A DNA stretch of 64,000 nt from Armatimonadota bacterium (GCA_013359125.1 JABWCR010000004.1:84607-148606); one strand, 5' to 3'; shown: positions 21,326 through 58,085, numbered from the stretch's first letter. The notes: generated from the letters alone by a model not told the origin. A program made the numbers and translations.

Positions 21326-21736
21326 TCAGCAACCGAGGCCGAAGTTTGAGAGTACGATTGCGAGGTCTGTGTCGTCGATTATCCCGTCATCGTTCTCGTC
21401 GCCAAGACCCGTGCCGCCGAAGCCGCCCAGCACGATTGCTAGATCGGTATCGTCGACGCAACCGTCCCAGTTGACATCACCGGCCAATCGGGGACGCCAG
21501 AATCCGCCCGTTAGCGTGAAGGCGCCTCCAGAGAGGGCATTGGCGCCCGTAGCGTCAGGCTGCCCCACGGTGCCGCCCATTTTGAAGGCGCCGCCCGTGG
21601 CAAAGGTGATTCCGCCGCCGTCGATCGTGTTCCAGGTTAGGTCAAACCCGCCGCCCGTCTGAGCGCTGGCGCCTACGATCAGGCACACCGAAAGAACGAC
21701 CATGAAGCCCGTCTTCTTAAAAAAGGATCCAACCAT
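21326..21736 (-). CDS. small secreted Gly-rich protein with a C-terminal GC-terminated dockerin-like module
   Basis: The ATG at 21736 follows AAGGAGG. A signal/TM segment FMVVLSVCLIVGASAQ is present. The C-terminus is GDVNWDGCVDDTDLAIVLGGFGGTGLGDENDDGIIDDTDLAIVLSNFGLGC-stop. Confidence 0.7.
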   Translation of the reverse strand: MVGSFFKKTGFMVVLSVCLIVGASAQTGGGFDLTWNTIDGGGITFATGGAFKMGGTVGQPDATGANALSGGAFTLTGGFWRPRLAGDVNWDGCVDDTDLAIVLGGFGGTGLGDENDDGIIDDTDLAIVLSNFGLGC

Positions 21737-21799
21737 CTCGCTGCCTCCTTTACGACCTGTGGATATTATACGCCACATCCGCCAGAGATTCCTTCCACG

Positions 21800-24700
21800 T
21801 CAGGAAGATTTTTGAAAGTTCTCGATTTCTTTCGAGGCCAGTTGCAGCGCATCGACCACTTTCAACGCTTGCCCTTCGGCTATCAAGCGCTGCCAATTCT
21901 TTGCGCCCAGGGCGTTCTTCGCTTTATCGACTGCCGCTTCCCATCGTTGCTGATCGTCGGGCATCGCATTAAGCAGGTCGTCTTCCAGACGGTCCATCGA
22001 GGCTCCGACCAACACGCCTGCAGAATCCAAGAGGCCGACATGAACAAAGAGCTGTGCGGCGACTCGCAGGGTTGCAACCTGGTTGACCGGAGAACCGACC
22101 TCGAAGGCATCTTGTACGCATTGGGCACAGAAGTCGAACGACTCCCTCACCCGATTCAGTCGATAAAGAAGCTCGACCCCCGCCTCGTAAGCCCCAAAGA
22201 TGCCTCGATTGTCATTGATTTCTTTGCTCTTGGCCAAGGCGCGTTGAGCATAGTCCCATCCTTGTTCGAGTTCGCCTGAATAGAGAAGCGTGGATGCCAA
22301 GTTGCGGTAATTCTTGGCTTCCCATAGCATGTTGCGTTGTCGAAGGTTGAACTCGAGCGACGATTCGTACAGTTCTCTGGCTTTGGCATAGTTCCCTCGG
22401 CTGCGCTGCACGTTGCCCATGTTGTTCTTGATCGCCGCTACGCCGGACAGATCGCCGATACGGGCATAGTATTTGAGCGCTTGTTGGTACGCCTCGTCGG
22501 CCGCTTCGATGTCTGCCTTGTATTGGTGCGTCGTGCCGATGTTGAGGTAGTTATGGGCGAGCCAAGAGTAGTTGCCCATTTTCAGGTTGATGTCTCTGGC
22601 CTCTTCAAACAGGGCCATGGCTTCGTCCAGTCTGTCGATCTGCTGCAAGGGCAGGCCCATATTGTTCAGGCAGCCGGCAACTCCCCTCAAGTCTCCTTGC
22701 TCCCGACGAAGCTTCATAGCGATCTCTATGTGCTTAATTCCATCAAGATAGTTGCCTTGATTGGTGTATGCATTACCGAGACCATTGTGGACCTCGGCAA
22801 TTCCAATTCTGTGGTTCATGCTCTCTGCCAGTTCGAGCGCCTTTCCGTAAATCTGTTCGGTATCTGCATGTCTGGCTTGGGACCAGGCGACCGTCGCCTT
22901 GGCAAGCAACATTCGCAGATAGAGCGTTTGATCCTGCGGGTCGATAATCTGTTCTGCTTGGTCTGCAGCCGACTGAGCGCCCACATAGTCGCCGACGCGT
23001 ATACAGCTTGCGGATTTCGTTACCAAAGCGATCCCATGCCACACCGTATTGGCAGGTTTAGCGGCCAAGTACTTTTCTAGCCATCGCAGAATCTCGCCCC
23101 AATAGCCCTTAACCCCAAAGTAGTGCCGAAGCGCCTCGATCAACCGGACGCCTTGATCCCACTCGCCATGAGATTCTGCAAAGGCGAGCGCCGCCCAGAC
23201 GTTTTCAATCTTGGAGTCCCACTTGTCGAACAACTCGAGCTGCCGCTCGCTTAGCATCGCCCCGCAGTCTTCCTCCGCACGATCGATGAAGTACTGCAGG
23301 TGTCGAAGTCGGAGCTTCGTTTGTTCGTGCGGCGCCAGTTGCGACCATCCGTAGGCTTGCAACGTTTCTAGCAGCCGATACCGTCGTTCGTCCGCCGCGT
23401 CGAATCCAATGATCAGGCTCGATTCCTGAAGTTGGTGCAGCCCCTCGAGCGCATCGGGCCACTCGAGAATGGCCTCAGCCGCTTCCAGATTCCAGCCGCC
23501 TCTAAAAACCGAGAGTTGACTGAACCGAGTTCTGAGTTCTGGGTCTAACAGCTTCATGCTCCATTCGACGGTGCCGCGCAGCGTGCGCTGTCTCTCGGCA
23601 AGGTCCTTTCTTGGAGACGTTAGCCAGTCTAACCTCTGCGAAATTCGTTCGACCATTTGCCTTGGGCTGAGCAGGCGGATGCGCGCTGCCGCCAACTCTA
23701 TCGCAAGCGGTATGCCCTCAAGTTCGCGGCAAAGTTGTGCTACAGACGCTGCGTTTCCCGCTGAAAGGGCAAAATCGGGCATTTTCTGCTGGGCGCGATC
23801 GATGAAGAGTTCGACGCAAGGATTGCTCTGAAGGCTCTCCAGTTCGTCGTCCGTAGGGAGCGGCAGAAGGCCAATGGGAAACTCTTGCTCGGCGGCCAGA
23901 CCAAGGGGCAGGCGAGAGGTAACGATAATCCTAAGCGCGCTCGCTTGGTCCAGAAGTTTCGGAAGCGTCTCGACGCCGCCTTCGATCAGTTGCTCGAAGT
24001 TGTCCAATATCAGGAGCGATGGCGATTCGGAGAGGACCGCCGCCGACTGATCGAGCGTGGAGGCTCCTCGAATAGGGGTTAGGCGCAGAACAGAGGCGAT
24101 CGCATCGGGAATTATGGACGGGTCGTCCACATCTTGAAGTTGAACGAACCACGCGCCGCCTGGAAAGGCCGACTGCGCGTTACGGGCAGACTGTAGCGCT
24201 AATCTCGTCTTTCCTACGCCTCCAAAGCCGATGAGAGTGATCAGCCTTGGTCCTTGTGCATCGCCGAGCATGTCGCAGAGGCGCTCCAGTTCTGACTCTC
24301 GTCCTACAAAGCGCGATCGGGAAGAAGGAAGATTGCCTTTCCGCGATTCTGGGCTTACTGCCGCCGGCGTTTGCTCGACTTCTTCTGGCGCGGGCAGAAT
24401 CGCTGCCGCAACGCCCACGACGACCGGGCGCGATCGTTCTAGGACTGGGGTCCGTACAGTTTGACGGGCAAATTTGCCTTGAAGGGCATTCTGCGCCTCT
24501 TGCGACGGCTCGTTGCCCCACTCTTCTTTGATCATCTTCTCCAGCGCTTGGTATTGCCTTTGAGCGGACGCTCTGTCGCCGCTAGCGACCATAAGTCGGA
24601 TCGCCGCAACGTGCGCGTCTTCCCGCAACGGGTCTGCGGCCACTGCTCGTTTAGCGTACTCCAGCCCTTTTCTTGGATTGTGCGAATGGAGTTCGGCCAA

Positions 24701-25198
24701 TCGATTGAGCGCGGATATATAGGCGTCGTGAAGGCGCGGCTGCTCGTCCATGATCCAGTCGGCATAAAATCCGGGCATCAGTTCTCCCTTGAAGAGGCCG
24801 ACGGCTTGTTCGAGAGCGGCCATCTCTGCCGATGGATCGGAGATCTTGTTAGCCGCCTCGATCAGACGCGCAAACCGGTGGGCGTCGCACGTTGCAAAAT
24901 CGGGATTGAGGCCGACCGTGCGCCGATCGGCCTGGAGCACAGTTCCCGGCTCTATGCCTGCCGGTTCTAATTGGTTGCGAAGCGAGGAGACCGCCTTGCT
25001 GAGGCTGTTGCGCGCCTGATCGGGGTCGCTGTCGGGCCACAGCATCTCGATGAGCGTTTCGCGCGGATGCTCTCGACCCAAAAAGTAGGCGCAGTATGCC
25101 AGCAGAAGCGCGGTCTTCTCGGTTCTGAACCGAGCGACGACGCGGCCAGAGACTATGGCCTTGATTCCGCCAAAGAGTTCGACCTGGCAAAGCTCCAT
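21800..25198 (-). CDS. SARP/BTAD winged-helix + NB-ARC (STAND) ATPase + TPR transcriptional regulator (AfsR-like)
   Basis: The N-terminal region shows DNA-binding/BTAD features (LLAYCAYFLGREHPRETLIEMLWPD...; ...REDAHVAAIRLMVASGDRASA). Walker A is LIGFGGVGKTRLAL. The C-terminal half contains many TPR-like repeats (NNMGN..., G.Y..A...YE.AL). Confidence 0.8.
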   Translation of the reverse strand: MELCQVELFGGIKAIVSGRVVARFRTEKTALLLAYCAYFLGREHPRETLIEMLWPDSDPDQARNSLSKAVSSLRNQLEPAGIEPGTVLQADRRTVGLNPDFATCDAHRFARLIEAANKISDPSAEMAALEQAVGLFKGELMPGFYADWIMDEQPRLHDAYISALNRLAELHSHNPRKGLEYAKRAVAADPLREDAHVAAIRLMVASGDRASAQRQYQALEKMIKEEWGNEPSQEAQNALQGKFARQTVRTPVLERSRPVVVGVAAAILPAPEEVEQTPAAVSPESRKGNLPSSRSRFVGRESELERLCDMLGDAQGPRLITLIGFGGVGKTRLALQSARNAQSAFPGGAWFVQLQDVDDPSIIPDAIASVLRLTPIRGASTLDQSAAVLSESPSLLILDNFEQLIEGGVETLPKLLDQASALRIIVTSRLPLGLAAEQEFPIGLLPLPTDDELESLQSNPCVELFIDRAQQKMPDFALSAGNAASVAQLCRELEGIPLAIELAAARIRLLSPRQMVERISQRLDWLTSPRKDLAERQRTLRGTVEWSMKLLDPELRTRFSQLSVFRGGWNLEAAEAILEWPDALEGLHQLQESSLIIGFDAADERRYRLLETLQAYGWSQLAPHEQTKLRLRHLQYFIDRAEEDCGAMLSERQLELFDKWDSKIENVWAALAFAESHGEWDQGVRLIEALRHYFGVKGYWGEILRWLEKYLAAKPANTVWHGIALVTKSASCIRVGDYVGAQSAADQAEQIIDPQDQTLYLRMLLAKATVAWSQARHADTEQIYGKALELAESMNHRIGIAEVHNGLGNAYTNQGNYLDGIKHIEIAMKLRREQGDLRGVAGCLNNMGLPLQQIDRLDEAMALFEEARDINLKMGNYSWLAHNYLNIGTTHQYKADIEAADEAYQQALKYYARIGDLSGVAAIKNNMGNVQRSRGNYAKARELYESSLEFNLRQRNMLWEAKNYRNLASTLLYSGELEQGWDYAQRALAKSKEINDNRGIFGAYEAGVELLYRLNRVRESFDFCAQCVQDAFEVGSPVNQVATLRVAAQLFVHVGLLDSAGVLVGASMDRLEDDLLNAMPDDQQRWEAAVDKAKNALGAKNWQRLIAEGQALKVVDALQLASKEIENFQKSS

Positions 25199-25222
25199 CC
25201 CGGTCAGGATGTTACCTGGGCC

Positions 25223-28455: not shown

Positions 28456-29483
28456 AACCGGCTTCCTTTCAACTGACCGCAGGCTGCTGCAATGTCGTGG
28501 CCTTTCTCCTCGCGTTGGGTGGTTTCGATGCCTTTTTCGGTCAGCTTATCTCGGAACAGTCGAACTTGCGATGAGCCGGGGCGCTGAAAGTTTAAGTCTG
28601 TACGAACAAAGTTAAACGGAATGAGGTTGACCAGGCAAGGGAAGCCCTTAAGCAGACCTGCGAGTTGGTCCGCGTGTTCTGCCTGGTCGTTAATCCCTTT
28701 AAGAAGGAGATACTCGAAGGTAACGCGACGGCCCGTTTGAGCGAAGTAACTTCGGCAGGCATCGAGCAGTTCGGCGATCGACCACTTTTTGGCAACCGGC
28801 ATCAGCGACTTCCTAAGTTCGTCGTTTGGCGCATGAAGCGAGACAGCGAGCGTAATCTGAAGTTTCTCCTTTGCCAAATCTAAAATGCGCGGAACGATTC
28901 CGACGGTTGAAATCGTCATTCGTCTCATGCCAATGCCAATCTCCTTGTTCATAAGGCGAATTGAGGTCAGGACATTATCGAAGTTGAGCATCGGCTCGCC
29001 CATTCCCATAAAAACGACATGACTGATCCGGCTTGAAGAAAGGGACTGCATGAGAAGAAGCTGATCGACAATCTCCCCCGGGGTCAGGTTCCTTCCGGCG
29101 CCTAATTGTGCCGTTGCGCAAAAATGGCAACCCATGGCGCAGCCTACCTGCGAACTGAGGCATACGCTGGTCCGGTCTTTGAAAGGCAGAAGCACACACT
29201 CGACTTGTTCCTTGTCGGACAGTTCTACAAGACATTTGATCGTTCCGTCTGCCGATTCCTGTTTTAAGTATAACTTTATGGCCTCAATCTGAAACTTTTC
29301 TTCAAGCAGCGAACGGAGGCTTGCAGGCAGGTCCGTCATCTGGTCGAAGCTGCGGCAGTTGGCCGTGTAGACCCAGCGAGCCATCTGTCGCGCTCGATAG
29401 ATCGGATGGCCTAACTGCTCGACGATTCCTGCCATATCGATCGTCGAGAGGCCGACCAGTGGTTGGGTTTGAACAGCATTCAT
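28452..29483 (-). CDS. rlmN: 23S rRNA/tRNA (adenine-C2)-methyltransferase, radical SAM
   Basis: CLSSQVGCAMGCHFCATAQLG is the CxxxCxxC motif. Also GMGEPMLNF and a C-terminal ...DIAAACGQL. Confidence 0.9.
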   Translation of the reverse strand: MNAVQTQPLVGLSTIDMAGIVEQLGHPIYRARQMARWVYTANCRSFDQMTDLPASLRSLLEEKFQIEAIKLYLKQESADGTIKCLVELSDKEQVECVLLPFKDRTSVCLSSQVGCAMGCHFCATAQLGAGRNLTPGEIVDQLLLMQSLSSSRISHVVFMGMGEPMLNFDNVLTSIRLMNKEIGIGMRRMTISTVGIVPRILDLAKEKLQITLAVSLHAPNDELRKSLMPVAKKWSIAELLDACRSYFAQTGRRVTFEYLLLKGINDQAEHADQLAGLLKGFPCLVNLIPFNFVRTDLNFQRPGSSQVRLFRDKLTEKGIETTQREEKGHDIAAACGQLKGSRL

Positions 29484-30667
29484 CGGGTTTCAATATACCT
29501 GGCGGTTACGGGTTGTCGAGCCAGCACGAGGGCGCGAACGAAAAAGAGGACCATGAACGGCGCCATGTGCAAAAGGGTGCGCGAACCGCCGGCATAGAGC
29601 CAGATGAAGAACCAGCTGACGAACCAGACGATTGCAATCAGCCAAAGATCGCGCGAACGAACGCGAGCGCCGACAAAGAACCCAATGTGAGCAATGATCA
29701 GGAAGATCCAGTAGGCGAAGTCGATCAGCACACTCTTCGCGCTCCGGTGCTCTGGTTTCTGCAGACCAATGGGACTGAGCGTGAGGCGCGTCTTTTGCCA
29801 AACAAGGCTTGCAAAATCGGTCGGGTTTTCCTTGATCCAGGCAAGAGCGAGATCCATGTACTTTCGGTCGCCATCGACCCAGTTGTCCGCCTTTGTAAAG
29901 TCGGCGACGACCACTTCCTCTCCCTTAAGCGCGATCCGTTCGGGGGGCTTCATGGCAAATCCACCGTCCGCTTCCGGGTTGTTGCTCCAGAAAAGTACAA
30001 ATCCGCCAAGCGAAATTGGTACAAATCTGTCAAATCGGCTGGAGATGTAGATTACATACGGCGCTATGATCAGCGCTGAGGCGAGCAGGAAGATGCCCGC
30101 AGGTTTCCATCCTTCCTTGCGCCATGTCCAGATCGCAAAGAGGGGCAGAAGCGGCAAAAGATTGGCCCGGGTCAACGCCAGAAGTCCGACCAGAATGGCC
30201 GAACGGATGCGCGACCCGTCCCACAATAGCCAAATCGACCAGACAACCAAGGGTATGACAAGGTTTTCGGTATAGAGCCAGCCGCTGAGCAAGATCAGTT
30301 GTGGGTGCAGGGCAGTGAGCCAAAACGTCCAGTGGGCGATTCGCTCGTCAAACAGTTTGCGCGCGCAAGCGGCAGCGCCAAAGGCAGAGAGTACTCCCAA
30401 AATCGCATTGACCACCCTGACGGCATCCGGCGCGTGCCCAAAAACCCAATAGACAGACGCCATTAGATAGATGTAGAGCGGCGATGTCTGGAGGCCTTTG
30501 GTAAACTCCAATCGACCTTCGCTGGCCAGAATCCATGCCATCTCGTCGTGAAAGACGGAATCGCCGTGCAAAGGGTCTTGACGCAAGTAGGGATCGATCC
30601 TCGTCGCCAACAGTGCGTAAGCGATGCGAAAGGCGACGAGCGCGATGAGGGCGATCGACCGGTTCAC
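29480..30667 (-). CDS. polytopic membrane protein, GT-C fold glycosyltransferase-like (PMT_2/ArnT-like)
   Basis: About 10 hydrophobic segments. The first loop carries an acidic motif DPLHGDSVFHDE, typical of family 39/83-type GT-C enzymes. Confidence 0.6.
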   Translation of the reverse strand: MNRSIALIALVAFRIAYALLATRIDPYLRQDPLHGDSVFHDEMAWILASEGRLEFTKGLQTSPLYIYLMASVYWVFGHAPDAVRVVNAILGVLSAFGAAACARKLFDERIAHWTFWLTALHPQLILLSGWLYTENLVIPLVVWSIWLLWDGSRIRSAILVGLLALTRANLLPLLPLFAIWTWRKEGWKPAGIFLLASALIIAPYVIYISSRFDRFVPISLGGFVLFWSNNPEADGGFAMKPPERIALKGEEVVVADFTKADNWVDGDRKYMDLALAWIKENPTDFASLVWQKTRLTLSPIGLQKPEHRSAKSVLIDFAYWIFLIIAHIGFFVGARVRSRDLWLIAIVWFVSWFFIWLYAGGSRTLLHMAPFMVLFFVRALVLARQPVTARYIETR

Positions 30668-36588: not shown

Positions 36589-36589
36589 G

Positions 36590-37570: not shown

Positions 37571-37589
37571 CCCTTGCAAGGAGAAACTC

Positions 37590-41048: not shown

Positions 41049-41063
41049 ACCGAGGAGCGAATC

Positions 41064-42610: not shown

Positions 42611-42620
42611 GAGGCTGAAT

Positions 42621-43346: not shown

Positions 43347-43470
43347 TCTAGCGGCCCGATCAGACGAAACTTTCCGACATCAGCCTTCCTCTGTTGCTAC
43401 ATCCGGCGAAATGGCTGCATACTATTCTTCGGTCAAGCGACCAAATAGAAAATCACTGGAGGCTGTAGAG

Positions 43471-44571
43471 ATGAGCAGAAAATTTGGAGTGGTAATGAAG
43501 CTGATGGTGGCGGGGGCTTTGGCCGTTGCCGCGCTGTCCTCGTTCGCGCAGGGCGATATCCGCTGTTGCACCTATAGCGTCAGGCACAACTTTAGGATCT
43601 GTCTGCCGCAGTGCCCAGTCGTCGGGGTGGAGTGGAACTGGCACGCGCAGGCATCGGCCTGGAATCCGTTAACGACCAATATCAACAGCGGCACAGCCAT
43701 ATATCCCGTGCCCAGCATGGACACGAAGTGCGCTACCGCGTTCACAGCGCAGGATTGTTCGTTCGCAACCGCCTGCGCGGCTTTCCAAGTTGATCCGATC
43801 CCCGGCACCCCCTGCATTAAGGGCTACCATCAGGCTTATGGTCGCGCTTGTGTCCGTTGCCGTCAGTTTGGCGCGGCTGCCAATTCGGCGTCGCACATCA
43901 AGATCCTTTGCGGCGCTCCCAATGCGACCGGAGCGATCTCGTGGCAGCCTGTGCTTGAAGATCGCGTGGGCGGCGGATGCGAGGTTGTGAATCACGACCC
44001 GATTTACATGAAGTACGAAGGCATCGATGGATATTTGGAAGACCGGCTTTTCGATTTGCGCGCAAGCGGGTTTAGCTGGGAAACCCAGGATTTGGACGGA
44101 GACGGTTGGGGCGATGTGGCCAATCTCGTCCCGACGCGAGGCTCTGGGATCATTAACGTCTTTGTGGGCGGCCAGACGATGACAGGGCACCACGGCCAAC
44201 TGCAGTTGGCTTATGAAGACGGCATGGTTACTAGCCTTGTGAAGACCGGGCTGTTCGAACCGTTGCCGATTCCTGGCGTAGGCCATCCCATTCCCGACGC
44301 GATCGAGGTACCGGCTTCGTTCGAGCTGCCGTTCGAGACTCCGCGAGGCATGCGCCTTCAGAGTATCGAGATCGGAGGGGACGGCAGAGGCGGCTGGTCC
44401 CCAGTAACGGGCGACGTCAATGGCGACGGCTGCGTGGACGACATCGACCTGGCGCGAGTTCTCCGGATGTTCGGTCAGAGCGGCGAACTGGCAGAAGACG
44501 TGAACGACGACGGCACAGTCGATGACGCGGACCTGGCCATCGTTCTCGAGAACTTTGGCATGGGTTGCTAA
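43471..44571 (+). CDS. secreted Cys-rich protein with a C-terminal GC-terminated dockerin-like module
   Basis: The ATG at 43471 follows GGAGG. Signal peptide ...ALAVAALSSFAQG. About 15 Cys in the first 160 aa. The C-terminus is GDVNGDGCVDDIDLARVLRMFGQSGELAEDVNDDGTVDDADLAIVLENFGMGC-stop. Confidence 0.7.
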   Translation: MSRKFGVVMKLMVAGALAVAALSSFAQGDIRCCTYSVRHNFRICLPQCPVVGVEWNWHAQASAWNPLTTNINSGTAIYPVPSMDTKCATAFTAQDCSFATACAAFQVDPIPGTPCIKGYHQAYGRACVRCRQFGAAANSASHIKILCGAPNATGAISWQPVLEDRVGGGCEVVNHDPIYMKYEGIDGYLEDRLFDLRASGFSWETQDLDGDGWGDVANLVPTRGSGIINVFVGGQTMTGHHGQLQLAYEDGMVTSLVKTGLFEPLPIPGVGHPIPDAIEVPASFELPFETPRGMRLQSIEIGGDGRGGWSPVTGDVNGDGCVDDIDLARVLRMFGQSGELAEDVNDDGTVDDADLAIVLENFGMGC

Positions 44572-45572: not shown

Positions 45573-45778
45573 TGGATCTCCTTTCGTCGTAAGATTTGAT
45601 TCAAATCTCGAAGCGTGTTCCTAAATCATACATTACCATCGAATGCTTCCGGCCTGGCAATATTGCTTGATTCGATACCGACCAAATGCTGGCCAACTTT
45701 AACGCTCAGCGTCGAAGCGGGCCCATAGGGCCAAAAAATGTGTTAAACTGTTGCATATCTGTGGGAGGAGGTATCTCG

Positions 45779-47287: not shown

Positions 47288-48826
47288 ATGCGTTGCACGC
47301 TCGTTGCGCTGTTCGCGGTTATCGTCGTTTGCGCTGCTTTCTCCCAACCCTTCACTTATCAAGGCTCGTTGCGCGATGCTGGATTGCCAGCTTCAGGCGA
47401 GTACTCGATGACCTTTCGGCTCTTTGGCTCGCTAGCCGGGGCAGACCAGATCGGCGGCAATATTGTTCAGAACGTCTCGATCGCCGCAGGATTGTTTACA
47501 GCCGTACTCGACTTTGGCACGACAGCATTCAATGGGTCCGACCGGTGGCTAGAAGTTCAAGTGGGCGCTCAAGTCCTGTCGCCGCGCATTAAACTGAACG
47601 CTGTGCCCTATGCAGCGTATGCGCACAAACCGTGGGTGAAATCGGGTACTGCGGTTCATTATTCGGATGGGAACGTCGGGATTGGCACGTCTACGCCCGG
47701 TTTTCCGTTGACCTTTGCCAATCAACTGGGCGCCAAAATCTCGCTCTACGGCCAAAGCGGAAATAGTTACGGCTTTGGCGTTCAAAGCGCTCTTCTCCAG
47801 ATTCACACGAACGTGCAGGCAGCCGACATTGCGTTCGGGTACGGGTCGAGCGAAGCCTTTACTGAGAGAATGCGCGTGAAAGGCAATGGCAACGTAGGCA
47901 TTGGCACATCTACGCCGGTTTACAAGTTTGATGTTCTGGGCGGTGGCGGGGTTGCACGATTCAGCGACGGTACGAGGGATCTCGTTTCTTGGCTAGGCAG
48001 TTCTGAAGGCGCAGACGGAGCGTTCTTTGGAACGACTACCGCGCACTCTTTAATTCTTCAGAGCTCCAATACTGCCAGAGTAACGGTACTGCCGAATGGC
48101 GACGTTGGAATCGGCACAACGACCCCGATGGCCAAACTCGACTTGAGAGGTCCCGCCATTATCCAAGAGAGAATCGATGTGGTTGACGAGACTCTCTCTA
48201 CTAAAGTCATTTTGGGCGCGCCAGGCGGCGTCGGCAGGATCAATACTTATAACGCAAATGGAATTCACATGAACTACATTAGCACGAACGGCGCTACCAA
48301 CTTCCCCTTGATGGGCGTTTTGAACTCAGCTCAGACTGTCGTTGCGGGTGGAATATTGCGAGACAATGTGAGCGGCACCGTCGTGTTTGCGAACGTCAAA
48401 AACTTTGTCGAGCCCAATCAGAACGACCCGACAACCGACATTTGGTATGCGAGTCTGGAAGGTCCCGAAGCGGCCATGTACGTCCGTGGCAAGGGCCGGC
48501 TGGTCAATGGCGAGACAACGATTGTTCTTCCTGACCACTTTCTATCTATGATGTCGTCCGATACCTCGACCGTCCACTTGACGCCTCACTCGAGGAGTTC
48601 CAAGGGCCTTGGCTGTGAAATTGGTCCCAACGGCATCACGGTATTCGAACTGGCCGGCGGCAAAGGTGCATACGAGTTCTCGTGGACGGTAACTTCCGTT
48701 CGCAAGGGATTTGAGAACTATCGCGTCCTTCGACCATGGGACGAGATCGCGCCCGTAGAGACCGATCGCGAAAAGGCCTGGCAGGCTCGGCTGAAGGAGT
48801 TGGAGGAGAAAACAGACCGTAACTAA
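47288..48826 (+). CDS. secreted tail-fibre-like repeat protein (paralog 2)
   Basis: Same architecture as paralog 1. Signal peptide present. Repeats VGIGTSTPGFPLTF, VGIGTSTPVYKFDVLG, VGIGTTTPMAKLDLRG. C-terminal block TDIWYASLEGPEAAMYVRG...LPDHF. Confidence 0.6.
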   Translation: MRCTLVALFAVIVVCAAFSQPFTYQGSLRDAGLPASGEYSMTFRLFGSLAGADQIGGNIVQNVSIAAGLFTAVLDFGTTAFNGSDRWLEVQVGAQVLSPRIKLNAVPYAAYAHKPWVKSGTAVHYSDGNVGIGTSTPGFPLTFANQLGAKISLYGQSGNSYGFGVQSALLQIHTNVQAADIAFGYGSSEAFTERMRVKGNGNVGIGTSTPVYKFDVLGGGGVARFSDGTRDLVSWLGSSEGADGAFFGTTTAHSLILQSSNTARVTVLPNGDVGIGTTTPMAKLDLRGPAIIQERIDVVDETLSTKVILGAPGGVGRINTYNANGIHMNYISTNGATNFPLMGVLNSAQTVVAGGILRDNVSGTVVFANVKNFVEPNQNDPTTDIWYASLEGPEAAMYVRGKGRLVNGETTIVLPDHFLSMMSSDTSTVHLTPHSRSSKGLGCEIGPNGITVFELAGGKGAYEFSWTVTSVRKGFENYRVLRPWDEIAPVETDREKAWQARLKELEEKTDRN

Positions 48827-48852: not shown

Positions 48853-49728
48853 ATGAGGCAGACTTGGGTCGCAATCGCGATTGCATTGTCGTCATGCGCC
48901 TTCGCGGATGGTTTGACTTGGCATGAAGGCATGCCCAAGGCGATACAGATCGCGAAGGCCGAAAACAAACCGATCTTGGCTTTAGACCTCTTCGGCCGTT
49001 GGGACGATGAGTTCTGCTGAACGAACGCGCGCACACTGAGAGCCGTGCTGTTCTCAAACCCAGAAGTTCAAGAGTTTCTCGAAAAAAACTTCGTGCTGAC
49101 ATGGAACGAGGTTCGCCCAGTGCCCAAGGTCGAGATCGATTTTGGAGACGGCAAGAAGCTAACGCGCACCTTGATGGGCAACACCGTGATCTATGTCTGC
49201 CGTCCGGACGGTACGGTGGTCGACGCATTGCCCGGCATCTACACCCCGCATGATTTTCTCAAAGAGATCAAGGTTTCTTTAGCTGCGCTTGCCGTCAGCG
49301 ATGAGAATCTGGCCGACCACCACAAAGGGCTTGTGGAAGCGGATGTAACCAAGGAGAGAGCGCGGGTTTCCATGTCAAAGGCGCGCGTGGAGAGTCCGCT
49401 TTTGGCCGCGCTCGGCGTTCCACAGTACGAAAGTCCGGATGGCGAATCTAAGCCAATGGCGCTGGATGTCAGCAAGATTCCTAAGAGCCGGGCAGAGATG
49501 GAAGCGATGGGAAGCGCCGAGCAGGTCGTCGCCAAGGATTCCTCCAACAACGTGCGCTACGTAAGGCCGATCGTGCACTTCATCTTAAGCCGGCAAAATG
49601 CGGCGCAGAAGCCAGAGCAGCTGCGCGAGACGATCTTTGCTCAGGCGCTCGGCTTCGACATCAAAGACCCCTACCTAGGGCTAGCGTCCTTGCTGTTGCC
49701 CGGCACGCCTGGCGGTCGAACGAACTAA
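48853..49728 (+). CDS. thioredoxin-fold lipoprotein-like gene interrupted by an in-frame TGA (49018-49020): selenocysteine candidate or pseudogene
   Basis: The ATG at 48853 gives MRQTWVAIAIALSSCAFADGLTWHEGMPKAIQIAKAENKPILALDLFGRWDDEFC-TGA-TNARTLRAVLFSNPEVQEFLEKNFVLTWNEV... The same frame continues into track ORF 49045..49728. An LSSC lipobox-like signal is present. The TGA sits where Thioredoxin_7-type proteins carry their redox Cys. Confidence 0.5.
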
Positions 49729-49756
49729 CAGCCCAAGCCAAAGTTCTCAAGCACGA
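49711..49756. repeat. 46-bp exact repeat, copy 1 (the 3' end of a GC-dockerin gene plus 14 nt of flank)
   Basis: GGCGGTCGAACGAACTAACAGCCCAAGCCAAAGTTCTCAAGCACGA is identical to 51841-51886. Confidence 0.9.
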
Positions 49757-50555
49757 TGGCCAGATCTTGGTCGTCTACGATGCCGTCTTCGTTGACATCG
49801 GCAAAGGGATTGACGCCTCCGAACGCTTCTAAGACCAGCGCTAAGTCCTGGTCGTCCACGCAGCCATCGCTGTTCGTATCGCCGTCTGGCACGATTGGGA
49901 AGAAGTGGAAGCTGTCGTACCCAATGTTGCAGTCGGGGAAAACGTTATTGCCATCGCTCTCCGTAATCTCGATGCGCTTGATATTCTCCGTTGCCGACAC
50001 GATGCCCCAGAAGTCGGCGGCTCCGGGAGCGCCGCCTCCGCCCCCAGCGTTGTGCACGGGTATAGCGCCGTTGAACAATTGTGAGCCGGTGGACGAGACA
50101 ACTCGGATCGTGGATCCGCTCACGCCATCGGCGGATTGCGAAAGATGGTCGAATCCAAACGCTCGCACTGGGTTTCGGAACTCGATAGTCATGCTGTCGT
50201 GCTCGATCGGCGGATTCGAGCCCGGCCCAAGCTCCAGACCTCCTGGCGAAACGACCATCTCGCCAGAAGTCGGGAACAGCCTATTCGTGCTCGCGTCCCG
50301 AACGCCAGAAAAGCCGCCGGGCGTAAAGGTGTCGTTGCCTCGAACGACGTGCAAGAGCGCCGCCACCGCGATGAATCGCACCCCTTTGTACGACAAGCCT
50401 GACAAGTCTACGCCATGCAGGGTCTCAAAGTCGATGGTCATAGGCGGATTGCCCGCCGCAGCCATGAAGCCCGCTTTGTTCTGCGGAAACGTCTGAATTT
50501 GCGCCAATGCGCTCAAGGCAAATGTCGCTATTGCTAAAGTCGCGGAAATCTTCAC
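49725..50555 (-). CDS. secreted protein with a C-terminal GC-terminated dockerin-like module
   Basis: GTG start after GGAGGAA. Signal peptide MKISATLAIATFALSALAQ. The C-terminus is DGDTNSDGCVDDQDLALVLEAFGGVNPFADVNEDGIVDDQDLAIVLENFGLGC-stop. Confidence 0.7.
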   Translation of the reverse strand: MKISATLAIATFALSALAQIQTFPQNKAGFMAAAGNPPMTIDFETLHGVDLSGLSYKGVRFIAVAALLHVVRGNDTFTPGGFSGVRDASTNRLFPTSGEMVVSPGGLELGPGSNPPIEHDSMTIEFRNPVRAFGFDHLSQSADGVSGSTIRVVSSTGSQLFNGAIPVHNAGGGGGAPGAADFWGIVSATENIKRIEITESDGNNVFPDCNIGYDSFHFFPIVPDGDTNSDGCVDDQDLALVLEAFGGVNPFADVNEDGIVDDQDLAIVLENFGLGC

Positions 50556-50739: not shown

Positions 50740-51822
50740 ATGTTGCGATTTTTGAGGCTCGCAGTCGTGTTGCACTTTAGCCTGTGCTTTGCAGGCGCGG
50801 TTCTTGCTCAGGGCCTGCCGCCCATCGTTTGGGAAGGATTCCAGTCCCAAGACATCAATGCGATCGCTTTCTCGCCCGACGGCGCCCTCTTGGCTACCGC
50901 CAGTGCGGACAGAACCGCACATCTGTGGCGAGTGGAGGACGGCACAACTCTGCACAACCTCAGCGGACATTCGGGCGAAGTTCGCTCCGTCGCCTTCTCG
51001 CCGGACGGCCAACTGCTGGCCACCTCGGCCGATGACAACACCGTCCGAATCTGGCGCGTCTCGGACGGAAGTCTCAGTAGGATGTTTACGCAGCACAACG
51101 CGGGAGTCGCCTGTGTAACGTTCTCGCCCAATGGTGTTCATTTGGCCTCGGGCGACTATAGCGGCCGGGTCATCGTTTGGAACGTCTCCGACGGTTCGAT
51201 CGTTCGATCGATATCGAACCTCGACATCGTCGTACAGCTTGCCTTTACCTTGTCTGGCGGCGAGCTCGTAGTCGCGTCGAGCCAGTGGGACGGTTTCAAC
51301 GCCTATGGCAGGTTGCGATGGATCGCAACGGAGACGGGCGCCATTGTTCGGACGATCGCTGCCGGTTCCCCTATCACTTCTCTGGCCGTCTCGCCAGACG
51401 GACTTGCGTTGGCAACCATCCATGGCGCGTGCTTCGACTGTCTGCGAGGCGAAATCAAGATGTGGCGAGCCACCGACGGTCAACGGATCCGTATGTCCGT
51501 TAAGCGTCCGGACACGATCGGCGGACCTTTTGAGCCGTGGCTTCAAGACACGACGGAAACGCAAGCAGAGTTTGTCGCAGCGTCCGGCCACGTTTATGCG
51601 TTCTATAGTCTTGCTCGGGACAATGCCGGCAACCGCCAACTCTTGCCGGGAGACCCCAGAGCCGACGTAAACCGCGATGGCTGCGTGGACGACGTTGACT
51701 TGGCGATCGTGCTGGGGGACTTTGGCCAGGCCGGAAACCGCGACGCGGACGTTAACCTGGACGGCATAGTGGACGACACCGACCTCGCCATCGTGCTAAT
51801 AAACTTCGGCAGCGGATGCTGA
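50740..51822 (+). CDS. secreted WD40 beta-propeller protein with a C-terminal GC-terminated dockerin-like module
   Basis: Signal peptide present. WD repeats (AFSPDGALLATASADRTAHLWRV, VAFSPDGQLLATSADDNTVRIWRV, VTFSPNGVHLASGDYSGRVIVWNV ...). The C-terminus is ADVNRDGCVDDVDLAIVLGDFGQAGNRDADVNLDGIVDDTDLAIVLINFGSGC-stop. Confidence 0.8.
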   Translation: MLRFLRLAVVLHFSLCFAGAVLAQGLPPIVWEGFQSQDINAIAFSPDGALLATASADRTAHLWRVEDGTTLHNLSGHSGEVRSVAFSPDGQLLATSADDNTVRIWRVSDGSLSRMFTQHNAGVACVTFSPNGVHLASGDYSGRVIVWNVSDGSIVRSISNLDIVVQLAFTLSGGELVVASSQWDGFNAYGRLRWIATETGAIVRTIAAGSPITSLAVSPDGLALATIHGACFDCLRGEIKMWRATDGQRIRMSVKRPDTIGGPFEPWLQDTTETQAEFVAASGHVYAFYSLARDNAGNRQLLPGDPRADVNRDGCVDDVDLAIVLGDFGQAGNRDADVNLDGIVDDTDLAIVLINFGSGC

Positions 51823-51840: not shown

Positions 51841-51886
51841 GGCGGTCGAACGAACTAACAGCCCAAGCCAAAGTTCTCAAGCACGA
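51841..51886. repeat. 46-bp exact repeat, copy 2
   Basis: Identical to 49711-49756. It covers the last 10 codons plus the stop of gene 51855..55883 and 14 nt of its 3' flank. Confidence 0.9.
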
Positions 51887-54800
51887 GCGCAAGATCGGTG
51901 TCGTCCACTGCGCCGTCGTTGTTCAGGTCTTCTGGCAGTCCCGAACCGGTCTGACCAAATGCGGTCAGCACCAATGCGAGATCAACGTCGTCCACGCATC
52001 CGTCCAAGTTCACATCGCCGGGGATCCGAATGATCACGGGCGTGCAACGGCTGAACTCCGATGTCTCGAAGAACAGGAAGTTGACCGGGAGAAAATGGCG
52101 TCGACTCGCGGTCGTCGTTATGAGCGAGCCAACCGGCGCCAAGCCCGGATCGACATCCACACTGAAGCTGAGGATGCCGTTCGCGTCGGTCAGATCTTCT
52201 AAAATTGCCAGAGGCTGTCGTCCTTCGCCGTGGTTGCCGGGGTCGCACTGCACGTTCGAATAAAAGTAGATCGCATACCCTGTTTCAGGCAGCGCAGTCA
52301 ACCTGCCGGAAATGACTGTATCCGTGCCTGTGAAAATCGCGGAAAGAACGACAGGGAAGTTGACGATGTTGTCTTCCGGCGGATCGTCGTTGGGCGTAAC
52401 GCCATCGTCGCCAACGTCGATGCCGAGGTCGTCGTTGTTGTAAATGCGATTGCCAATGATGCCGTTGATGCGATTGTTCAGCGGTCTGGTTACGCCGTTG
52501 CGGTTGTTGAAAGCAATGCGGTTCCAGTGCGTCGAAAATACGCCGCCGACTGTGTTGTACTCGCTTATGCCACGGAATCGAACGCCGTTGAGGCCGTTTC
52601 CCAGGTCCATCGTGCCCGTGATGTCGGTGCCAATGCTGTTCAGAACCACGGCATTGCCTCCAGAGTTCTGGATTCCTTCAATGTCGCCCGTAATCTCAAT
52701 ACCGTCGAGCGTGTTTCCACTAATCACGTTGCCGCCATCAAACTGCGCGACCCCGACCGAATTGCCAGAGGAGTTGTCGATGCGAACGCCGACAAGATTA
52801 GGCATTGCGGCATTGCCAGAAATGTTGACGCCAATGTGATTGTTTCGAACCACATGGCCGCCGCCGCCCGTGATCAATACCCCGATGCCCGAATGGTTAG
52901 AGACGATATTGCGTCCCGTAACGCCTGCTCCTCCAATTTCAGACGCTCGGCTATCCTTGAGAAAGATGCCGTTCGTGGCGTTTGGAGCCGGGTCGCCGGC
53001 CTTGTTCAAGCCGATGTAATTGCCCATGATCTTGTTGCGAAGCGCCTGCGCGCCTTCGATCAGTACGCCTGACCGACCATTATTGGCAATGATGTTGCGC
53101 TCGCCGGTCTGTCCGGGCGAAACCAGACTGTCCGGCGCGTTAATGATGGCAATACCGTCAAATCCGTTGGGCCGGGAATCGACGCCGTTCGCGCCCGTCC
53201 CAACGACGTTGCCCGCAACTTGGTTGAATCCGGCGCCGTTGCCTGTAATCAAGACGCCGTACTGCTGATTGCCCGAGACGACATTGCCAGGCGGCGTTCC
53301 CGGATCGTTCGTCGATGCGCCAATAAAGTTATTAGGCGCGCCTGTAATGACTACCCCGCTCAAGTTGGCCAAGCGCGTCTGCCCATCGATCGCCACGCCG
53401 ATATAGTTGCCCAATATCTGGTTTCCCGTCGCCTGAGCGCCGTTGATCGCAACGCCATGTCCAAAATTATTGCTAAGGATGTTTCTGGCATCTGCGCCGT
53501 TACCGCCGATGATGTTGTTGGGCGCATTGGTGATCTGGATCGCATTCCCCGTATTGGGCGCGCCGTTGATTCCATCGGCCACCACTCCGATGCGATTGCC
53601 CTCAACCCGATTGCCCGAGGCGCGATTGCCCGTAATCTCAACCCCATGCGCATTCATTCCGATCACATTCATTGCGCCTTCGACCGTGCCGCCCACAATG
53701 TTGTTTGCAGCATGCTCCAAGCGAACTCCGTTTCCGATATTACGGCCCAAGAACGATCCATCCGCGTTGGTGCCGATATGGTTGCCCTGAATCTGGTTGC
53801 CCGTCGCCGGTCCAAAGCCTTGGATGAAGACGCCGTGCACGCCGTTGCCGACGACCAAATTTCGAGCAGCTGGGACTGTGCCTCCTAGGGTGTTGTTCAA
53901 GGCATCGGCCATAAACACGCCGGAGAACCCGGCGCCCATCCGCTGCGATTCGTCTCGATTGCTGCCCAATAAGTTGCCCTGCACAAGGTTGCTGGCGCCG
54001 TTCAAGATTCGCACGCTGTTGAACTCGCTGCCCGCAACAACGTTTCGAGCCCCTTCGGCCAGCCCGCCAACCGTGTTGTTTCTTGCCGTCGCCCCGACGA
54101 TAACGACCCCGATGGTGTTGCCCAGATCATCGGCGTTGCCAGGGACGCCGTCTGGGTTCGATACCATGCCCGTAGCATCCAAACCCAGATAGTTGCCTTG
54201 CACTCGGTTATTCTCGACCGTTCTGAAGCCGCCGTCCAGCATGACTCCCGCGTTGCCGTTGTCGGCGATCACGTTGCGAGCGGCTCCGGCCAATCCGCCG
54301 ATAACATTGTTCGAACCCAGCACAACGATGCCGCCCAAGCCTTCAGTCGCACGGCCATTGCCCTTAGCGCCCGAACCGAATCGGTCTATGCCAACGTAGT
54401 TGCCCTCCACAAAAGAGTGCGAGCCGCTCAGAGTAAGCCCGGTGCGGTTGAAATTGGTTATGATCAGGCCGCGGACAACGCTGTCGGAAGGTACCGTGAG
54501 GCCGTTCCCCAAGCCCGATACAAAGTGTCCATCGATCTCGATAATGGGCGTGTTCTCGCCGCCAGGTTGAGTCGAACCGTCTATGAAAACCGGCCTAACA
54601 ATATCCGGCAAGTTGGTAAACGGTTCGTACGTAAGGCCGCCCGTTACGGCAAAGTTAATCGCGTGCGAACCGGCTAGCGCATTGATCTGCATGATGGCCG
54701 CCCGGAGTGTGCAGACGCCGGTGAATCCTGACGTGGCATTGCCCGTATCGCAAATGCCGTCGGTTATATCGCCGTCCGGCAAGTCCAGCAGAAGGTTGAC

Positions 54801-55883: not shown

Positions 55884-55935
55884 GTCGAGCCCTCCCGGTT
55901 CGTTTCATAGATTGTACAACAGATTTAAGCCGATT

Positions 55936-55969: not shown

Positions 55970-55978
55970 ATGGCGAGT

Positions 55979-56833
55979 TTACTGCTTGCGCCGTCGCGAG
56001 CGCACCGCCAATGCGATCAAACCGCCGCCCAAGACGGCCATCGAGGCGGGCTCGGGCACGGGTTCGCCATAAATAAAGTCGTCCATGACGACGACATCGT
56101 GTCCGTTCAGCGGATCGTCGTTAGGGCCGCTGTTCAAACCCATTGCAGCGTTTCCGCTGAAGATTCGAACGCGGGAGACGATCCGATCGGCGAACTTGAC
56201 TCCGGCAAAGGAGAAACTTTCGTGAGGATTAACGCCCGCAGGAACGAAGATGGAGTAGATCAGACTGTTGTTGGCGTCGTAATACTCCATCTTTGTGCTG
56301 TCGGGCAGGTCGATGTCGGTAAACACGGCGCCAAACCCCGTAACCGTCGCCGGGAAGTTGGTACCGGCTACGAAGAAGCGCACGTCGGTAATGACGCTGT
56401 CGAGCGCGGTGAACAGCCTTTGCTGGCTGAACACGGCGAACTCGTTCGGATAAGAAGCGTTGATCCGAGCGTACTCGACCGGGGTATTGGTCGGGTTGCT
56501 GTCGTCCGCGCTCAAGAGAAACCCAGAGCCAGGCGTTGTGAACTCGGCGCCGCGGGCGCGGGGCGCGACCGGCGCGTTGAGAAAGTTGCCGGGGAAGAGG
56601 TTAGGATCCGAGAAGGCATCGCCCACCGCGTCCCAGTTGATTTCTCTTCTACCGTTTGGATTGCCCACGCCAGGCGTGTTGGCGTTGAGCGGTCCCAGCA
56701 GGGTTCTGTACTGATTGACGACGCTGAGCACCGCGGCGTGATCGCCAGAGCCGGCCAAGACGGTTTGGCCGTGGACCGGCAGCGCGACCGCCACCATGGC
56801 CGCTACCGTCAAAAAGATGTACTTGTTCGGCAT
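55979..56833 (-). CDS. secreted PEP-CTERM-anchored protein
   Basis: GGGAGG RBS. Signal peptide ...AVALPVHGQ. The C-terminus is VPEPASMAVLGGGLIALAVRSRRRKQ. Confidence 0.8.
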   Translation of the reverse strand: MPNKYIFLTVAAMVAVALPVHGQTVLAGSGDHAAVLSVVNQYRTLLGPLNANTPGVGNPNGRREINWDAVGDAFSDPNLFPGNFLNAPVAPRARGAEFTTPGSGFLLSADDSNPTNTPVEYARINASYPNEFAVFSQQRLFTALDSVITDVRFFVAGTNFPATVTGFGAVFTDIDLPDSTKMEYYDANNSLIYSIFVPAGVNPHESFSFAGVKFADRIVSRVRIFSGNAAMGLNSGPNDDPLNGHDVVVMDDFIYGEPVPEPASMAVLGGGLIALAVRSRRRKQ

Positions 56834-56951
56834 TTTGACCTCCCATTTCGACTGAATGTATGTTCAGTTTATCGATGGGAGGCCTCTTGCCGCATACGCC
56901 GTTTGGCCTATTTTGAGGCTGAAATTGTGCTACAAATTCTCAAAAAGCCGT

Positions 56952-58085
56952 TCAGCACCCCATGCCAAAGCCTTCTAAGACCATAGCCAGGTCGGAGTCG
57001 TCCACCACGCCGTCGCGGTTGAGGTCGGCATTGCGGCGGCCGGTTTGGCCAAACTCTTCCAGGACGATTGCCAGATCGATATCGTCCACACAGCCGTCAA
57101 AGTTAACGTCTGAATCGGGCACAGGGGTCAGCAGATAGCCGATGCCGTTGCCGTTCGCCACGATCTGGTTGTCGTTGTTGATGTCCCTGGCTTCTTGAAA
57201 CACGCCCAAAAAGTCGGCCGTTACTAAGTCGTTCAGGTCCTGCATCACCCCTGAATAGAGGAAGGCCCGATCGACACCGCCGCTTCGATAGAAGCCGACG
57301 ATCCATTCTGCATCGTTGATAGAATAGGCTTGAGAGACCGTTCCGCTCAAGGCGCCCAGGTCCTCGGACAGACCAAACCGCCATCGGCAGGCGCGGTTTT
57401 GGTTCAGGTGGTTGTTCGCATAGCCTACGATAACGCCCTCGTTGTTGATGGAATAGGCGCGGCCTATGCTGCCGCCGAGCAATGGCAACTCGTTTGCGAT
57501 TCCGAACTCGTACACGAAAGGCTTTTGTTCGTTCGATGCATTGGTAGAGTATCCTACCACTCGGCCCGAGTCGTTTATCCCATACGCCCAGCCCAAGTTT
57601 CCGCCTAGCGACGGTATTGCGGTCATTGAGGAGCCGTCATATCTATAGGCGCGATACTGGCTGTTGGACAACTGGGCCGCTCCGGCGATGAGCCCCGATG
57701 CGTTGATCGCCCACCCGTAGCTGCGCTGACCGCCAAGAGTCGGGATTGGAGCCATGTTGCCGTTTTCATACCGGAATCCTGTCGGAAGGCCGGATGCATT
57801 GTTCGAGTAGCCGACGATAACGCCCAGCGAGTTGATGTCGTAAGCCTCGCTGCGGTTGCCGCCCAAGAAGCCAAGCCCGGTCATCGTGCCGTTTTGCCAC
57901 ACAAAGGCCTCGATCGCCGACCCGCCGATGTTAGACCGTCCGACGACGATGCCGCTATCGTTCAACGCGTACGCCTCGGTCGTGCCCGTGCCGAGATTGC
58001 CGAGATTAGTTACTGCAAAGCGCTGCGCGAACGCCGTACCGACAAGCAGGGCCGCGCACGAAACGAGAATCGATTTGTTTAGCAT
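56952..58085 (-). CDS. secreted HAF-type repeat protein with a C-terminal GC-terminated dockerin-like module
   Basis: The ATG at 58085 follows GGAGG; the track's upstream extension is rejected. Signal peptide MLNKSILVSCAALLVGTAFAQ. About 7 repeats of AYxINxxGxIVGYS. The C-terminus is SDVNFDGCVDDIDLAIVLEEFGQTGRRNADLNRDGVVDDSDLAMVLEGFGMGC-stop. Confidence 0.75.
   Translation of the reverse strand: MLNKSILVSCAALLVGTAFAQRFAVTNLGNLGTGTTEAYALNDSGIVVGRSNIGGSAIEAFVWQNGTMTGLGFLGGNRSEAYDINSLGVIVGYSNNASGLPTGFRYENGNMAPIPTLGGQRSYGWAINASGLIAGAAQLSNSQYRAYRYDGSSMTAIPSLGGNLGWAYGINDSGRVVGYSTNASNEQKPFVYEFGIANELPLLGGSIGRAYSINNEGVIVGYANNHLNQNRACRWRFGLSEDLGALSGTVSQAYSINDAEWIVGFYRSGGVDRAFLYSGVMQDLNDLVTADFLGVFQEARDINNDNQIVANGNGIGYLLTPVPDSDVNFDGCVDDIDLAIVLEEFGQTGRRNADLNRDGVVDDSDLAMVLEGFGMGC

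Follow-up and report, generated by a model that had tools for sequence, protein, structure and literature searches.

The 64,000-nucleotide stretch of DNA from an Armatimonadota bacterium analysed here (GCA_013359125.1 JABWCR010000004.1:84607-148606, hereafter the window) raises the question of why six secreted proteins, which are otherwise unrelated, should all finish with the same small module. An initial annotation of this sequence had described the module as a dockerin-like pair of calcium loops ending in FG-x-G-C directly before the stop codon, and had compared it to a portable sorting or anchoring tag. In terms of both sequence and predicted fold, the module is a genuine dockerin rather than a calmodulin-type EF-hand pair; its two conserved cysteines most likely form an internal disulfide, and it probably serves to attach varied secreted proteins, presumably to a shared receptor of the cell envelope.

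When searched in all six frames of the window, the calcium-loop expression D-x-[ND]-x-[DN]-G-x-[VI]-D-x-x-D-[LI] gives 12 matches, which are paired within six open reading frames (ORFs) and occur nowhere else, and no match was obtained in 100 shuffled versions of the window. The six ORFs do share the double-loop module, and all end in FG-x-G-C followed directly by a stop codon (TGA in three cases, TAA in one, TAG in two); as all three stop codons are in use, a recoding event at the module end is ruled out. The loci initially reported are correct, but the numbers attached to them correspond to ORF boundaries and not to module starts: four of them (21326, 49725, 51855, and 56952) mark where minus-strand genes finish with their stop codon, 43471 falls on a Met inside the 43411-44571 ORF, and a gene begins at 50740, as does that of the HAF-repeat protein of 377 amino acids (aa) at 58085. 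Pairwise BLASTP comparison with the module masked gave a best E-value of 0.28, in agreement with the view that the passengers are unrelated. Regarding the domains that had been named in them, the WD40 and HAF repeats are well supported, the FG-GAP repeats weakly so (E 1e-5), and the 'beta-helix' was not confirmed. The signal peptides announced for all six proteins were also recognised by eye, as a hydrophobic N-terminal segment ending in ...A/S-Q (the 377-aa HAF protein, for instance, begins with MLNKSILVSCAALLVGTAFAQ).

The six modules comprise 51-54 residues, are 67-75% identical to module 1, and share 30 invariant columns in their alignment, including D1, N3, D5, G6, D9, and D12 in both loops as well as the two cysteines; besides, the two repeats within each module are nearly symmetrical. 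At the DNA level they are merely 61-71% identical and use different codons for half of the identical residues, which points to selection on the protein rather than recent copying and rules out recent gene conversion as the general source of their similarity. On a local scale, the genes at 49725 and 51855 have in common an exact tract of 46 nucleotides, covering the last 10 codons, the TAG stop, and 14 nucleotides downstream, which looks like a gene-conversion or duplication tract; for the other module pairs, the longest identical stretch does not exceed 20 nucleotides.

The dockerin-like nature attributed to the module is borne out by sequence and fold alike. All six modules conform to the superfamily pattern of two tandem segments of ~22 residues, each with a 12-residue calcium loop (D-x-N/D-x-D-G-x-hydrophobic-D/N-x-x-D) and a helix after it. 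Matches to PF00404 (Dockerin_1) were obtained in at least five of the six proteins, at 31.1 (the Cys-rich protein of 43411..44571), 28.3, and 23.6 bits, above the gathering threshold of 22.9 bits, and at 20.1 and 18.4 bits, below it, the last and weakest being that of the small protein of 21326..21778. Compared to the PDB, a profile built on the six modules retrieves the dockerins 2JNK/2OZN (C. perfringens NagJ-type), 2Y3N (B. cellulosolvens), and 4FL4 and 1DAQ (C. thermocellum). The structural check proposed in the initial annotation gave a concordant result, since the last 61 aa of the 1342-aa protein, when modelled with AlphaFold2, adopt a dockerin fold with a mean predicted local distance difference test (pLDDT) value of 94.1 and two helices, at residues 18-26 and 47-55. 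The 25 PDB matches returned by Foldseek for this model are all dockerins, the top one being 2Y3N_B with a template modelling (TM) score of 0.84 and a root-mean-square deviation of 1.4 A (59 columns). A canonical EF-hand pair of the calmodulin/troponin type, to which weak loop sequence matches in troponin C and secretagogin could have pointed, was rejected since the fold search gave dockerins alone.

The initial annotation had mentioned a possible earlier record of the module under a label like 'GC-type dockerin domain', and such a family exists: NF041540 (dockerin_GC) matches five of the six window proteins, each aligning through the final model position (67/67), and the last two residues are Gly-Cys in all six, as the family name implies. 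The scores (26.3, 23.1, 21.2, 17.5, and 17.2 bits, the value of 17.5 being that of the 43411..44571 protein) all lie under the curated cutoff of 29 bits, and the 21326..21778 protein has no match at E<=0.01. Three of the six proteins have exact GenBank matches (NUL81802-NUL81804, HUU60_03645-03655), each named 'hypothetical protein' because its score falls under this cutoff; they come from an Armatimonadetes metagenome-assembled genome (MAG) and are situated on a contig of 426 kb. Among ten other Armatimonadota modules tested, three exceed it, and some Fimbriimonadales relatives bear the NCBI name 'GC-type dockerin domain-anchored protein'. Judged by these profile matches, the six proteins are unrecognised members of an already catalogued family, situated below its threshold. 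In the literature searched, no paper with the term 'GC-type dockerin' was found, and nothing relevant came up on dockerins in Armatimonadetes/Armatimonadota.

The behaviour of the module was followed in two larger samples. With the six-module profile, a set of 1.84 billion representatives yielded 13,597 matching proteins at E<=1e-3, and the top 150 of these were examined for cysteines. Species-representative genomes, scanned with a pattern, contain at least 241 confirmed loci, of which the 76 best were taken; these come from 22 assemblies, among them the complete genome AP024673.1, and belong nearly all to Armatimonadota/Fimbriimonadales, with a few from unclassified bacterial MAGs. The Armatimonadota counts given hereafter refer to 1.08 Mb of locus DNA, window included, which contains 122 module copies in 121 ORFs. 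The end of the module coincides exactly with the stop codon in 101 of the 122 copies, and 96 of these 101 end in GC, so both the C-terminal placement and the terminal cysteine, which had been proposed for verification in a wider sample, are upheld. In about 10% of the copies, one to three residues follow the cysteine (e.g., GCQ, GCE, GCGS, GCSD). The idea of a strictly C-terminal module applies to most copies but not to a Cys-less one found at residues 99-150, near the N-terminus, of an RHS-repeat protein of more than 1368 aa (L035:2-4105(-) in AP024673.1, Fimbriimonadales KatS3mg018); this location fits an attachment device placed where the toxin end stays free. The RHS-repeat gene lies within a 20-kb island holding five further dockerin-tagged genes.

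Export of the module-bearing proteins seems to be general, as about 80% of them pass a strict test for a hydrophobic N-terminus, compared to 39% of the other genes, and those that fail mostly have visible signal peptides or mis-called starts. Their passengers include BNR/sortilin-like (9), WD40 (6-7), and HAF (4) proteins, delta-60 repeats, pyrroloquinoline quinone (PQQ) dehydrogenases, subtilases, RHS/YD, and choice-of-anchor Q proteins, a set that, as classified by sequence, is not dominated by carbohydrate-active enzymes. The Cys-rich protein of 43411..44571 represents a conserved Fimbriimonadales family of about 370 aa with 24 full-length orthologues (P0227-P0249 among them), every member of which has a GC dockerin. 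The window protein contains 12 Cys, and its passenger is modelled by AlphaFold2 as long beta-hairpins (pLDDT 87); the possibility that it could be a cohesin-like receptor was considered and rejected, its model matching no cohesin or other PDB entry (TM <= 0.19).

The portability of the module is illustrated by its relationship to PEP-CTERM. Five PEP-CTERM-tailed secreted proteins are located amid the six dockerin genes of the window, three with a Pfam PEP-CTERM match (one of them just under the Pfam cutoff) and two recognised by their tail sequence; one has a CHRD domain, and no exosortase gene was seen among the scanned window proteins. At locus L071, a 346-aa PEP-CTERM protein is 38% identical over 304 aa (E 9e-57) to a 579-aa module protein of the same locus, and the HAF protein of the window aligns over 341 aa with a PEP-CTERM HAF protein of locus L068 (34% identity, E 3e-31). 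These alignments indicate that the two C-terminal endings are interchanged on homologous passengers within the phylum. In the parallel with PEP-CTERM that was drawn initially, the tag behaviour therefore gains support, since homologous passengers have PEP-CTERM instead of the module, but the analogy in terms of mechanism is not: the tail of the module is acidic and folded, with neither a PEP motif nor a transmembrane segment, and no sortase-like processing is implied for a folded soluble domain that lacks a transmembrane helix and a basic tail.

A second line of evidence comes from the helices that follow the loops. In both repeats, the six window modules and at least seven modules on other contigs of the MAG have Ala at helix position 14 and no Phe at position 18, whereas the modules of the 22 other assemblies have Leu14 and Phe18. 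The shift from Leu14/Phe18 to Ala14/non-Phe18 is also seen inside three orthologous passenger families, namely the Cys-rich ~370-aa, WD40, and HAF proteins. Established work on canonical dockerins counts position 18 among the residues that contact cohesin, with position 14 on the same side of the helix, and positions 10-12 are also used in cohesin recognition according to the dockerin literature. A genome-wide shift in the two repeats fits what co-evolution with one receptor would produce.

The third line of evidence relates to the cysteines. In the Armatimonadota copies, Cys at position 7 of loop 1 and the terminal Cys are found together in 108 cases, are both missing in 10, and never occur one without the other. 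The Cys-less C-terminal subclass, about 10% of the copies (L009, L061, L029, L066, L050, L030, L051, L035:4344-6035), ends in FG..G[DE], GG, or GS and has Val, Leu, or Ile at loop position 7. Among the top 150 of the 13,597 proteins, an N-side and a module-final Cys are both present in 132 modules, one is present in 11, and neither in 7, the N-side Cys being located at -6 to -2, +4, +6, or +7 relative to D1. Most of the 11 one-Cys modules either correspond to four-repeat units enclosed by a single pair or have an alternative N-side pair. Tandem arrays of other lineages also rank among the top profile matches. In P0061, P0062, and P0089, each module is bracketed by cysteines, the internal ones included, at exactly two per module (8 Cys for 4 modules, 10 for 5, and 8 for 4, respectively). 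These three proteins and P0064, P0069, and P0078 possess 4-8 tandem dockerin-like modules each, in which the N-side Cys occupies loop position 6 or one of the positions -2 to -6 and a second Cys is the last module residue; in P0064, P0069, and P0078, unlike in the other three, the Cys pair brackets the first and last modules only.

Structural modelling points in the same direction. In a first AlphaFold2 model, DSSP assigns isolated bridges to the loop Cys (residue 15), to residues 31 and 44, and to the Gly that precedes the terminal Cys (residue 60), and in a second model to the equivalents of 31 and 44 only; residue 15 must therefore pair with residue 60, a pattern that would put the two cysteines side by side. 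Since the two cysteines co-occur, since internal array modules are also bracketed by them, and since the position of the N-side Cys varies, a structural disulfide is favoured over a modification of the terminal Cys. Of the two possibilities mentioned at the outset, closure of the module by a disulfide is the one supported by co-occurrence, by the Cys-bracketed internal modules, and by the predicted bridge pattern, and the Cys pair is most likely an intramodule disulfide clasp.

These data can be combined into one mechanism, to which, taken as a whole, we give slightly better than an even chance. Each of the six proteins would be exported through its Sec signal peptide. Its C-terminal dockerin-fold module would comprise two F-hand loops, presumably binding calcium and each followed by a helix, and a disulfide between Cys at position 7 of loop 1 and the final Cys, thereby tying the tail to the first calcium loop, in a covalent counterpart of the clasp by which canonical dockerins are stabilised. 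The module stapled in this way would act as a portable tag, docking varied secreted proteins non-covalently onto a putative receptor that is shared by them, is lineage-specific, and is located in the cell envelope of Fimbriimonadales/Armatimonadota, and would represent an alternative to the PEP-CTERM anchor of the neighbouring genes. Both the interchange with PEP-CTERM and the lineage signature present in the two helices fit an anchoring tag with a common receptor.

Several points weigh against this mechanism. The disulfide itself is something that we infer. The Cys-less Armatimonadota copies probably represent one or a few paralogous lineages, so that the cysteines would have been lost together in few independent events; the representative sample was ranked by a profile containing both Cys and is enriched for them; and in about three of its modules (P0075, P0151, P0200), no second Cys lies near the final one. 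On the receptor side, gene conversion appears to take place, as suggested by the 46-nucleotide tract, and could propagate a signature through the genome even if no receptor existed. The 41 window proteins scanned have no Pfam cohesin match, in line with the initial remark that no cohesin-like partner is visible in the window, and across the 76 loci the surroundings of the module genes revealed no conserved neighbouring family. A type-I cohesin hidden Markov model (HMM) also found no match in the 1.08 Mb (best E 1.4), a weak negative given that this narrow profile was built from ten relatives of a CipA cohesin sequence.

The failure to find a partner in the scanned window proteins, the 76 loci, and the 1.08 Mb is also what would be expected if there were no receptor, the module being a calcium-dependent folding, stability, or export-competence domain that folds only outside the cytoplasm. 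Non-cellulosomal dockerin-like modules without an identifiable cohesin are indeed widespread, and several passengers, such as PQQ dehydrogenases and TolB- or BamB-like propellers, are typically periplasmic. We nevertheless regard this explanation as unlikely, given that homologous passengers swap the module for PEP-CTERM, which is a cell-envelope anchor signal, that helix positions 14 and 18 have shifted genome-wide in both repeats, and that the RHS protein, whose C-terminus needs to stay free, has its module N-terminally, as would fit an attachment device.

Somewhat less probable again is an ordinary cellulosome-type system, in which canonical dockerins would bind the cohesins of scaffoldins encoded elsewhere, thereby assembling a polysaccharide-degrading complex. 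The fold and sequence of the module are those of cohesin-binding dockerins, its near-symmetrical repeats are reminiscent of the type I dockerins with a dual binding mode, and 9 of 88 passengers resemble a BNR-type glycosylhydrolase family. However, the passengers are mainly beta-propellers, HAF repeats, proteases, oxidoreductases, and RHS proteins rather than carbohydrate-active enzymes, and cohesins were detected neither in the scanned window proteins nor, with the narrow HMM, in the 1.08 Mb. In addition, cohesin and dockerin domains are reported to be absent in Fervidibacter, an Armatimonadota member of a different lineage (PMC11535203).

Finally, a terminal Cys serving for covalent attachment or modification (intermolecular disulfide to an envelope protein, lipidation, thioester), with the loop Cys being secondary, would agree with the 96 of 122 copies that terminate at this Cys and with five representative modules ending in GC without Cys7 in the adjoining loop, but this second possibility of the initial annotation is the most improbable one, because one to three extra residues follow the Cys in about 10% of the Armatimonadota copies and because tandem arrays have this Cys within the protein, with an N-side counterpart in every case, to which must be added the near-perfect co-occurrence of the two Cys, the nature of four of the five exceptions (two four-repeat units with a first-loop Cys, two modules with a Cys just upstream), and the use of all three stop codons, which excludes recoding.

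Coming back to the disulfide-clasped tag and its envelope receptor, a broader and clearly more speculative extension, which we consider rather doubtful at this stage, would be that GC-type dockerins constitute the ligand half of a phylum-wide, non-cellulosomal surface display system. Dozens of secreted proteins per genome would carry the tag, and the receptor, possibly not a cohesin, would co-evolve with it (LA-type versus LL/F-type), in parallel to and interchangeably with exosortase/PEP-CTERM. The present analysis adds to the catalogued family the evidence for a disulfide clasp formed by the Cys pair, the interchange with PEP-CTERM on homologous passengers, and the lineage-specific signature that points to a shared receptor. 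A tag found on dozens of secreted proteins per genome offers a handle on cell-surface organisation in the poorly studied Armatimonadota, and the LA versus LL/F signature a concrete route to the receptor through co-evolution. Besides, as NF041540 misses most of the Armatimonadota copies tested and all six of the window, a retrained model would annotate proteins now called 'hypothetical'. If confirmed, the Cys pair would be the first covalent dockerin clasp, which is relevant to the engineering of stabler dockerins for designer cellulosomes and protein scaffolds.

The features of the window are collected in the table below. The smallest dockerin-tagged protein (21326..21778) has a signal-peptide-like N-terminus, and its gene is followed, 3' of the stop, by a hairpin and a T-run; an intrinsic-terminator-like hairpin with T10 is likewise found 3' of the stop of the 43411..44571 gene.

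Table. Dockerin-tagged genes of the window, their modules, and related features (positions counted from the first nucleotide of the window).
Feature	Position	Strand	Remarks
Small Gly-rich secreted protein gene, C-terminal GC-type dockerin	21326..21778	-	150-aa ORF; 136 aa from Met at residue 15
Module 1, GDVNWDGCVDD...FGLGC	21329..21481	-	TGA stop at 21326-21328
Cys-rich all-beta secreted protein gene	43411..44571	+	386-aa ORF
Module 2, GDVNGDGCVDD...FGMGC	44410..44568	+	followed by TAA stop
Secreted protein gene with unassigned passenger domain, 276 aa	49725..50555	-	GenBank NUL81802.1 'hypothetical protein'; NF041540 26.3 bits, below cutoff of 29
Module 3, GDTNSDGCVDD...FGLGC	49728..49883	-	followed by TAG stop
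Secreted WD40 beta-propeller protein gene, 360 aa	50740..51822	+	NUL81803.1 'hypothetical protein'; WD40 E 1e-34; NF041540 21.2 bits
Module 4, ADVNRDGCVDD...FGSGC	51661..51819	+	followed by TGA stop
Secreted protein gene with weak FG-GAP repeats, 1342 aa	51855..55883	-	NUL81804.1 'hypothetical protein'
Module 5, GDVNLDGCVDD...FGLGC	51858..52019	-	followed by TAG stop; module used for modelling and fold search
Secreted HAF-repeat protein gene, 377 aa	56952..58085	-	TIGR02913 E 6e-40; NF041540 23.1 bits; public 377-aa gene call agrees
Module 6, SDVNFDGCVDD...FGMGC	56955..57113	-	followed by TGA stop
46-nucleotide identical tract	49725-49770 and 51855-51900 region	-	3' ends of two minus-strand genes
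PEP-CTERM-tailed secreted protein	8377-9006	+	by Pfam or tail sequence
PEP-CTERM-tailed secreted protein	9183-9812	+	by Pfam or tail sequence
PEP-CTERM-tailed secreted protein	44637-45572	-	by Pfam or tail sequence
PEP-CTERM-tailed secreted protein	55979-56833	-	by Pfam or tail sequence
PEP-CTERM-tailed secreted protein	59007-59636	-	by Pfam or tail sequence

Other genes of the window can be mentioned for their location or predicted function. Immediately upstream of the smallest dockerin-tagged gene, and on the same strand, lies a gene for a large STAND-type regulator with BTAD, AAA (NB-ARC-like), and TPR regions (21800-25198(-)). The second dockerin gene is directly preceded by an operon (35071-43346(+)) that resembles those of periplasmic molybdopterin oxidoreductases of the Nar/ethylbenzene-dehydrogenase type, with a di-haem cytochrome c containing an EB_dh domain, a molybdopterin subunit with a twin-arginine translocation (TAT) signal, a 4Fe-4S subunit, and a NarJ-like chaperone. 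Two adjacent genes (45686-47212(+) and 47288-48826(+)) code for secreted proteins of about 510 aa that are alike by eye, with repeated 'GIGT'-like motifs and a charged tail, and that have no Pfam match. Further downstream, 60804-62111(+) codes for a secreted protein combining an N-acetylmuramoyl-L-alanine amidase domain and a Golvesin C-terminal domain. A LytR-CpsA-Psr family enzyme (32493-33488(+)) adjoins a PMT_2-like membrane glycosyltransferase and an unassigned 589-aa hydrophobic, probably membrane, protein (29480-30667(-) and 30664-32433(-)); this neighbourhood corresponds to envelope glycopolymer genes, whose link to the dockerin tag is not established. In the 76 loci, the one recurrent non-module family near the module genes, with a prepilin-type N-terminus and DUF1559-like by eye, was considered as a partner and rejected, as it supplies just 16 of the roughly 890 non-module genes, at distances of 100 to 9,000 bp.

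How the module compares with known systems can finally be summarised as follows. Its closest relatives are the proteins of NF041540, 'GC-type dockerin domain-anchored protein', with which it shares a C-terminal double-loop dockerin-like domain ending in Gly-Cys, while the window modules score below the threshold of this family and form an 'LA' sub-variant. With the cellulosomal type I/II dockerins (PF00404; 2Y3N_B, 1DAQ, 4FL4), it has in common the fold (TM up to 0.84), the duplicated F-hand loops, and a near two-fold symmetry. It differs from them by its conserved Cys pair, the absence of trailing residues, passengers that are mostly not carbohydrate-active enzymes, the lack of a known cohesin partner, and a host that belongs to an aerobic-type Armatimonadota lineage rather than to the cellulolytic Firmicutes. 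The best PDB sequence match (E 1e-5) is provided by Clostridium perfringens NagJ/NagH (2OZN/2JNK), where a dockerin joins secreted proteins outside cellulosomes; unlike the window modules, this system lacks a Cys pair, and its cohesin partner has been identified.

PEP-CTERM/exosortase resembles the GC module as a C-terminal tag borne by many unrelated secreted proteins; the genes for the two tags are interleaved in the window, and the tags are interchangeable on homologous passengers. PEP-CTERM is a short motif followed by a transmembrane helix and a basic tail, features that the PEP-CTERM proteins of the window do possess, and is processed by an exosortase, whereas the GC module is a folded, soluble calcium-loop domain without a transmembrane segment, and its mechanism must therefore be different. 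As regards the Cys pair, the closest parallel is the non-covalent 'intramolecular clasp' described between the termini of intact dockerin modules in the solved structures examined by Slutzki et al. (2013, PMC3821032), in which the N-terminal flank or first loop contacts the C-terminal tail and thereby stabilises the calcium-bound fold. The N-side Cys found at -2 to -6 in tandem arrays overlaps the clasp positions -1 to -3 of that study (Slutzki et al. 2013, PMC3821032). While the known clasps consist of aromatic-proline stacking or salt bridges, all non-covalent, that of the GC module would be a disulfide, whose N-side partner in Armatimonadota is position 7 of the loop.

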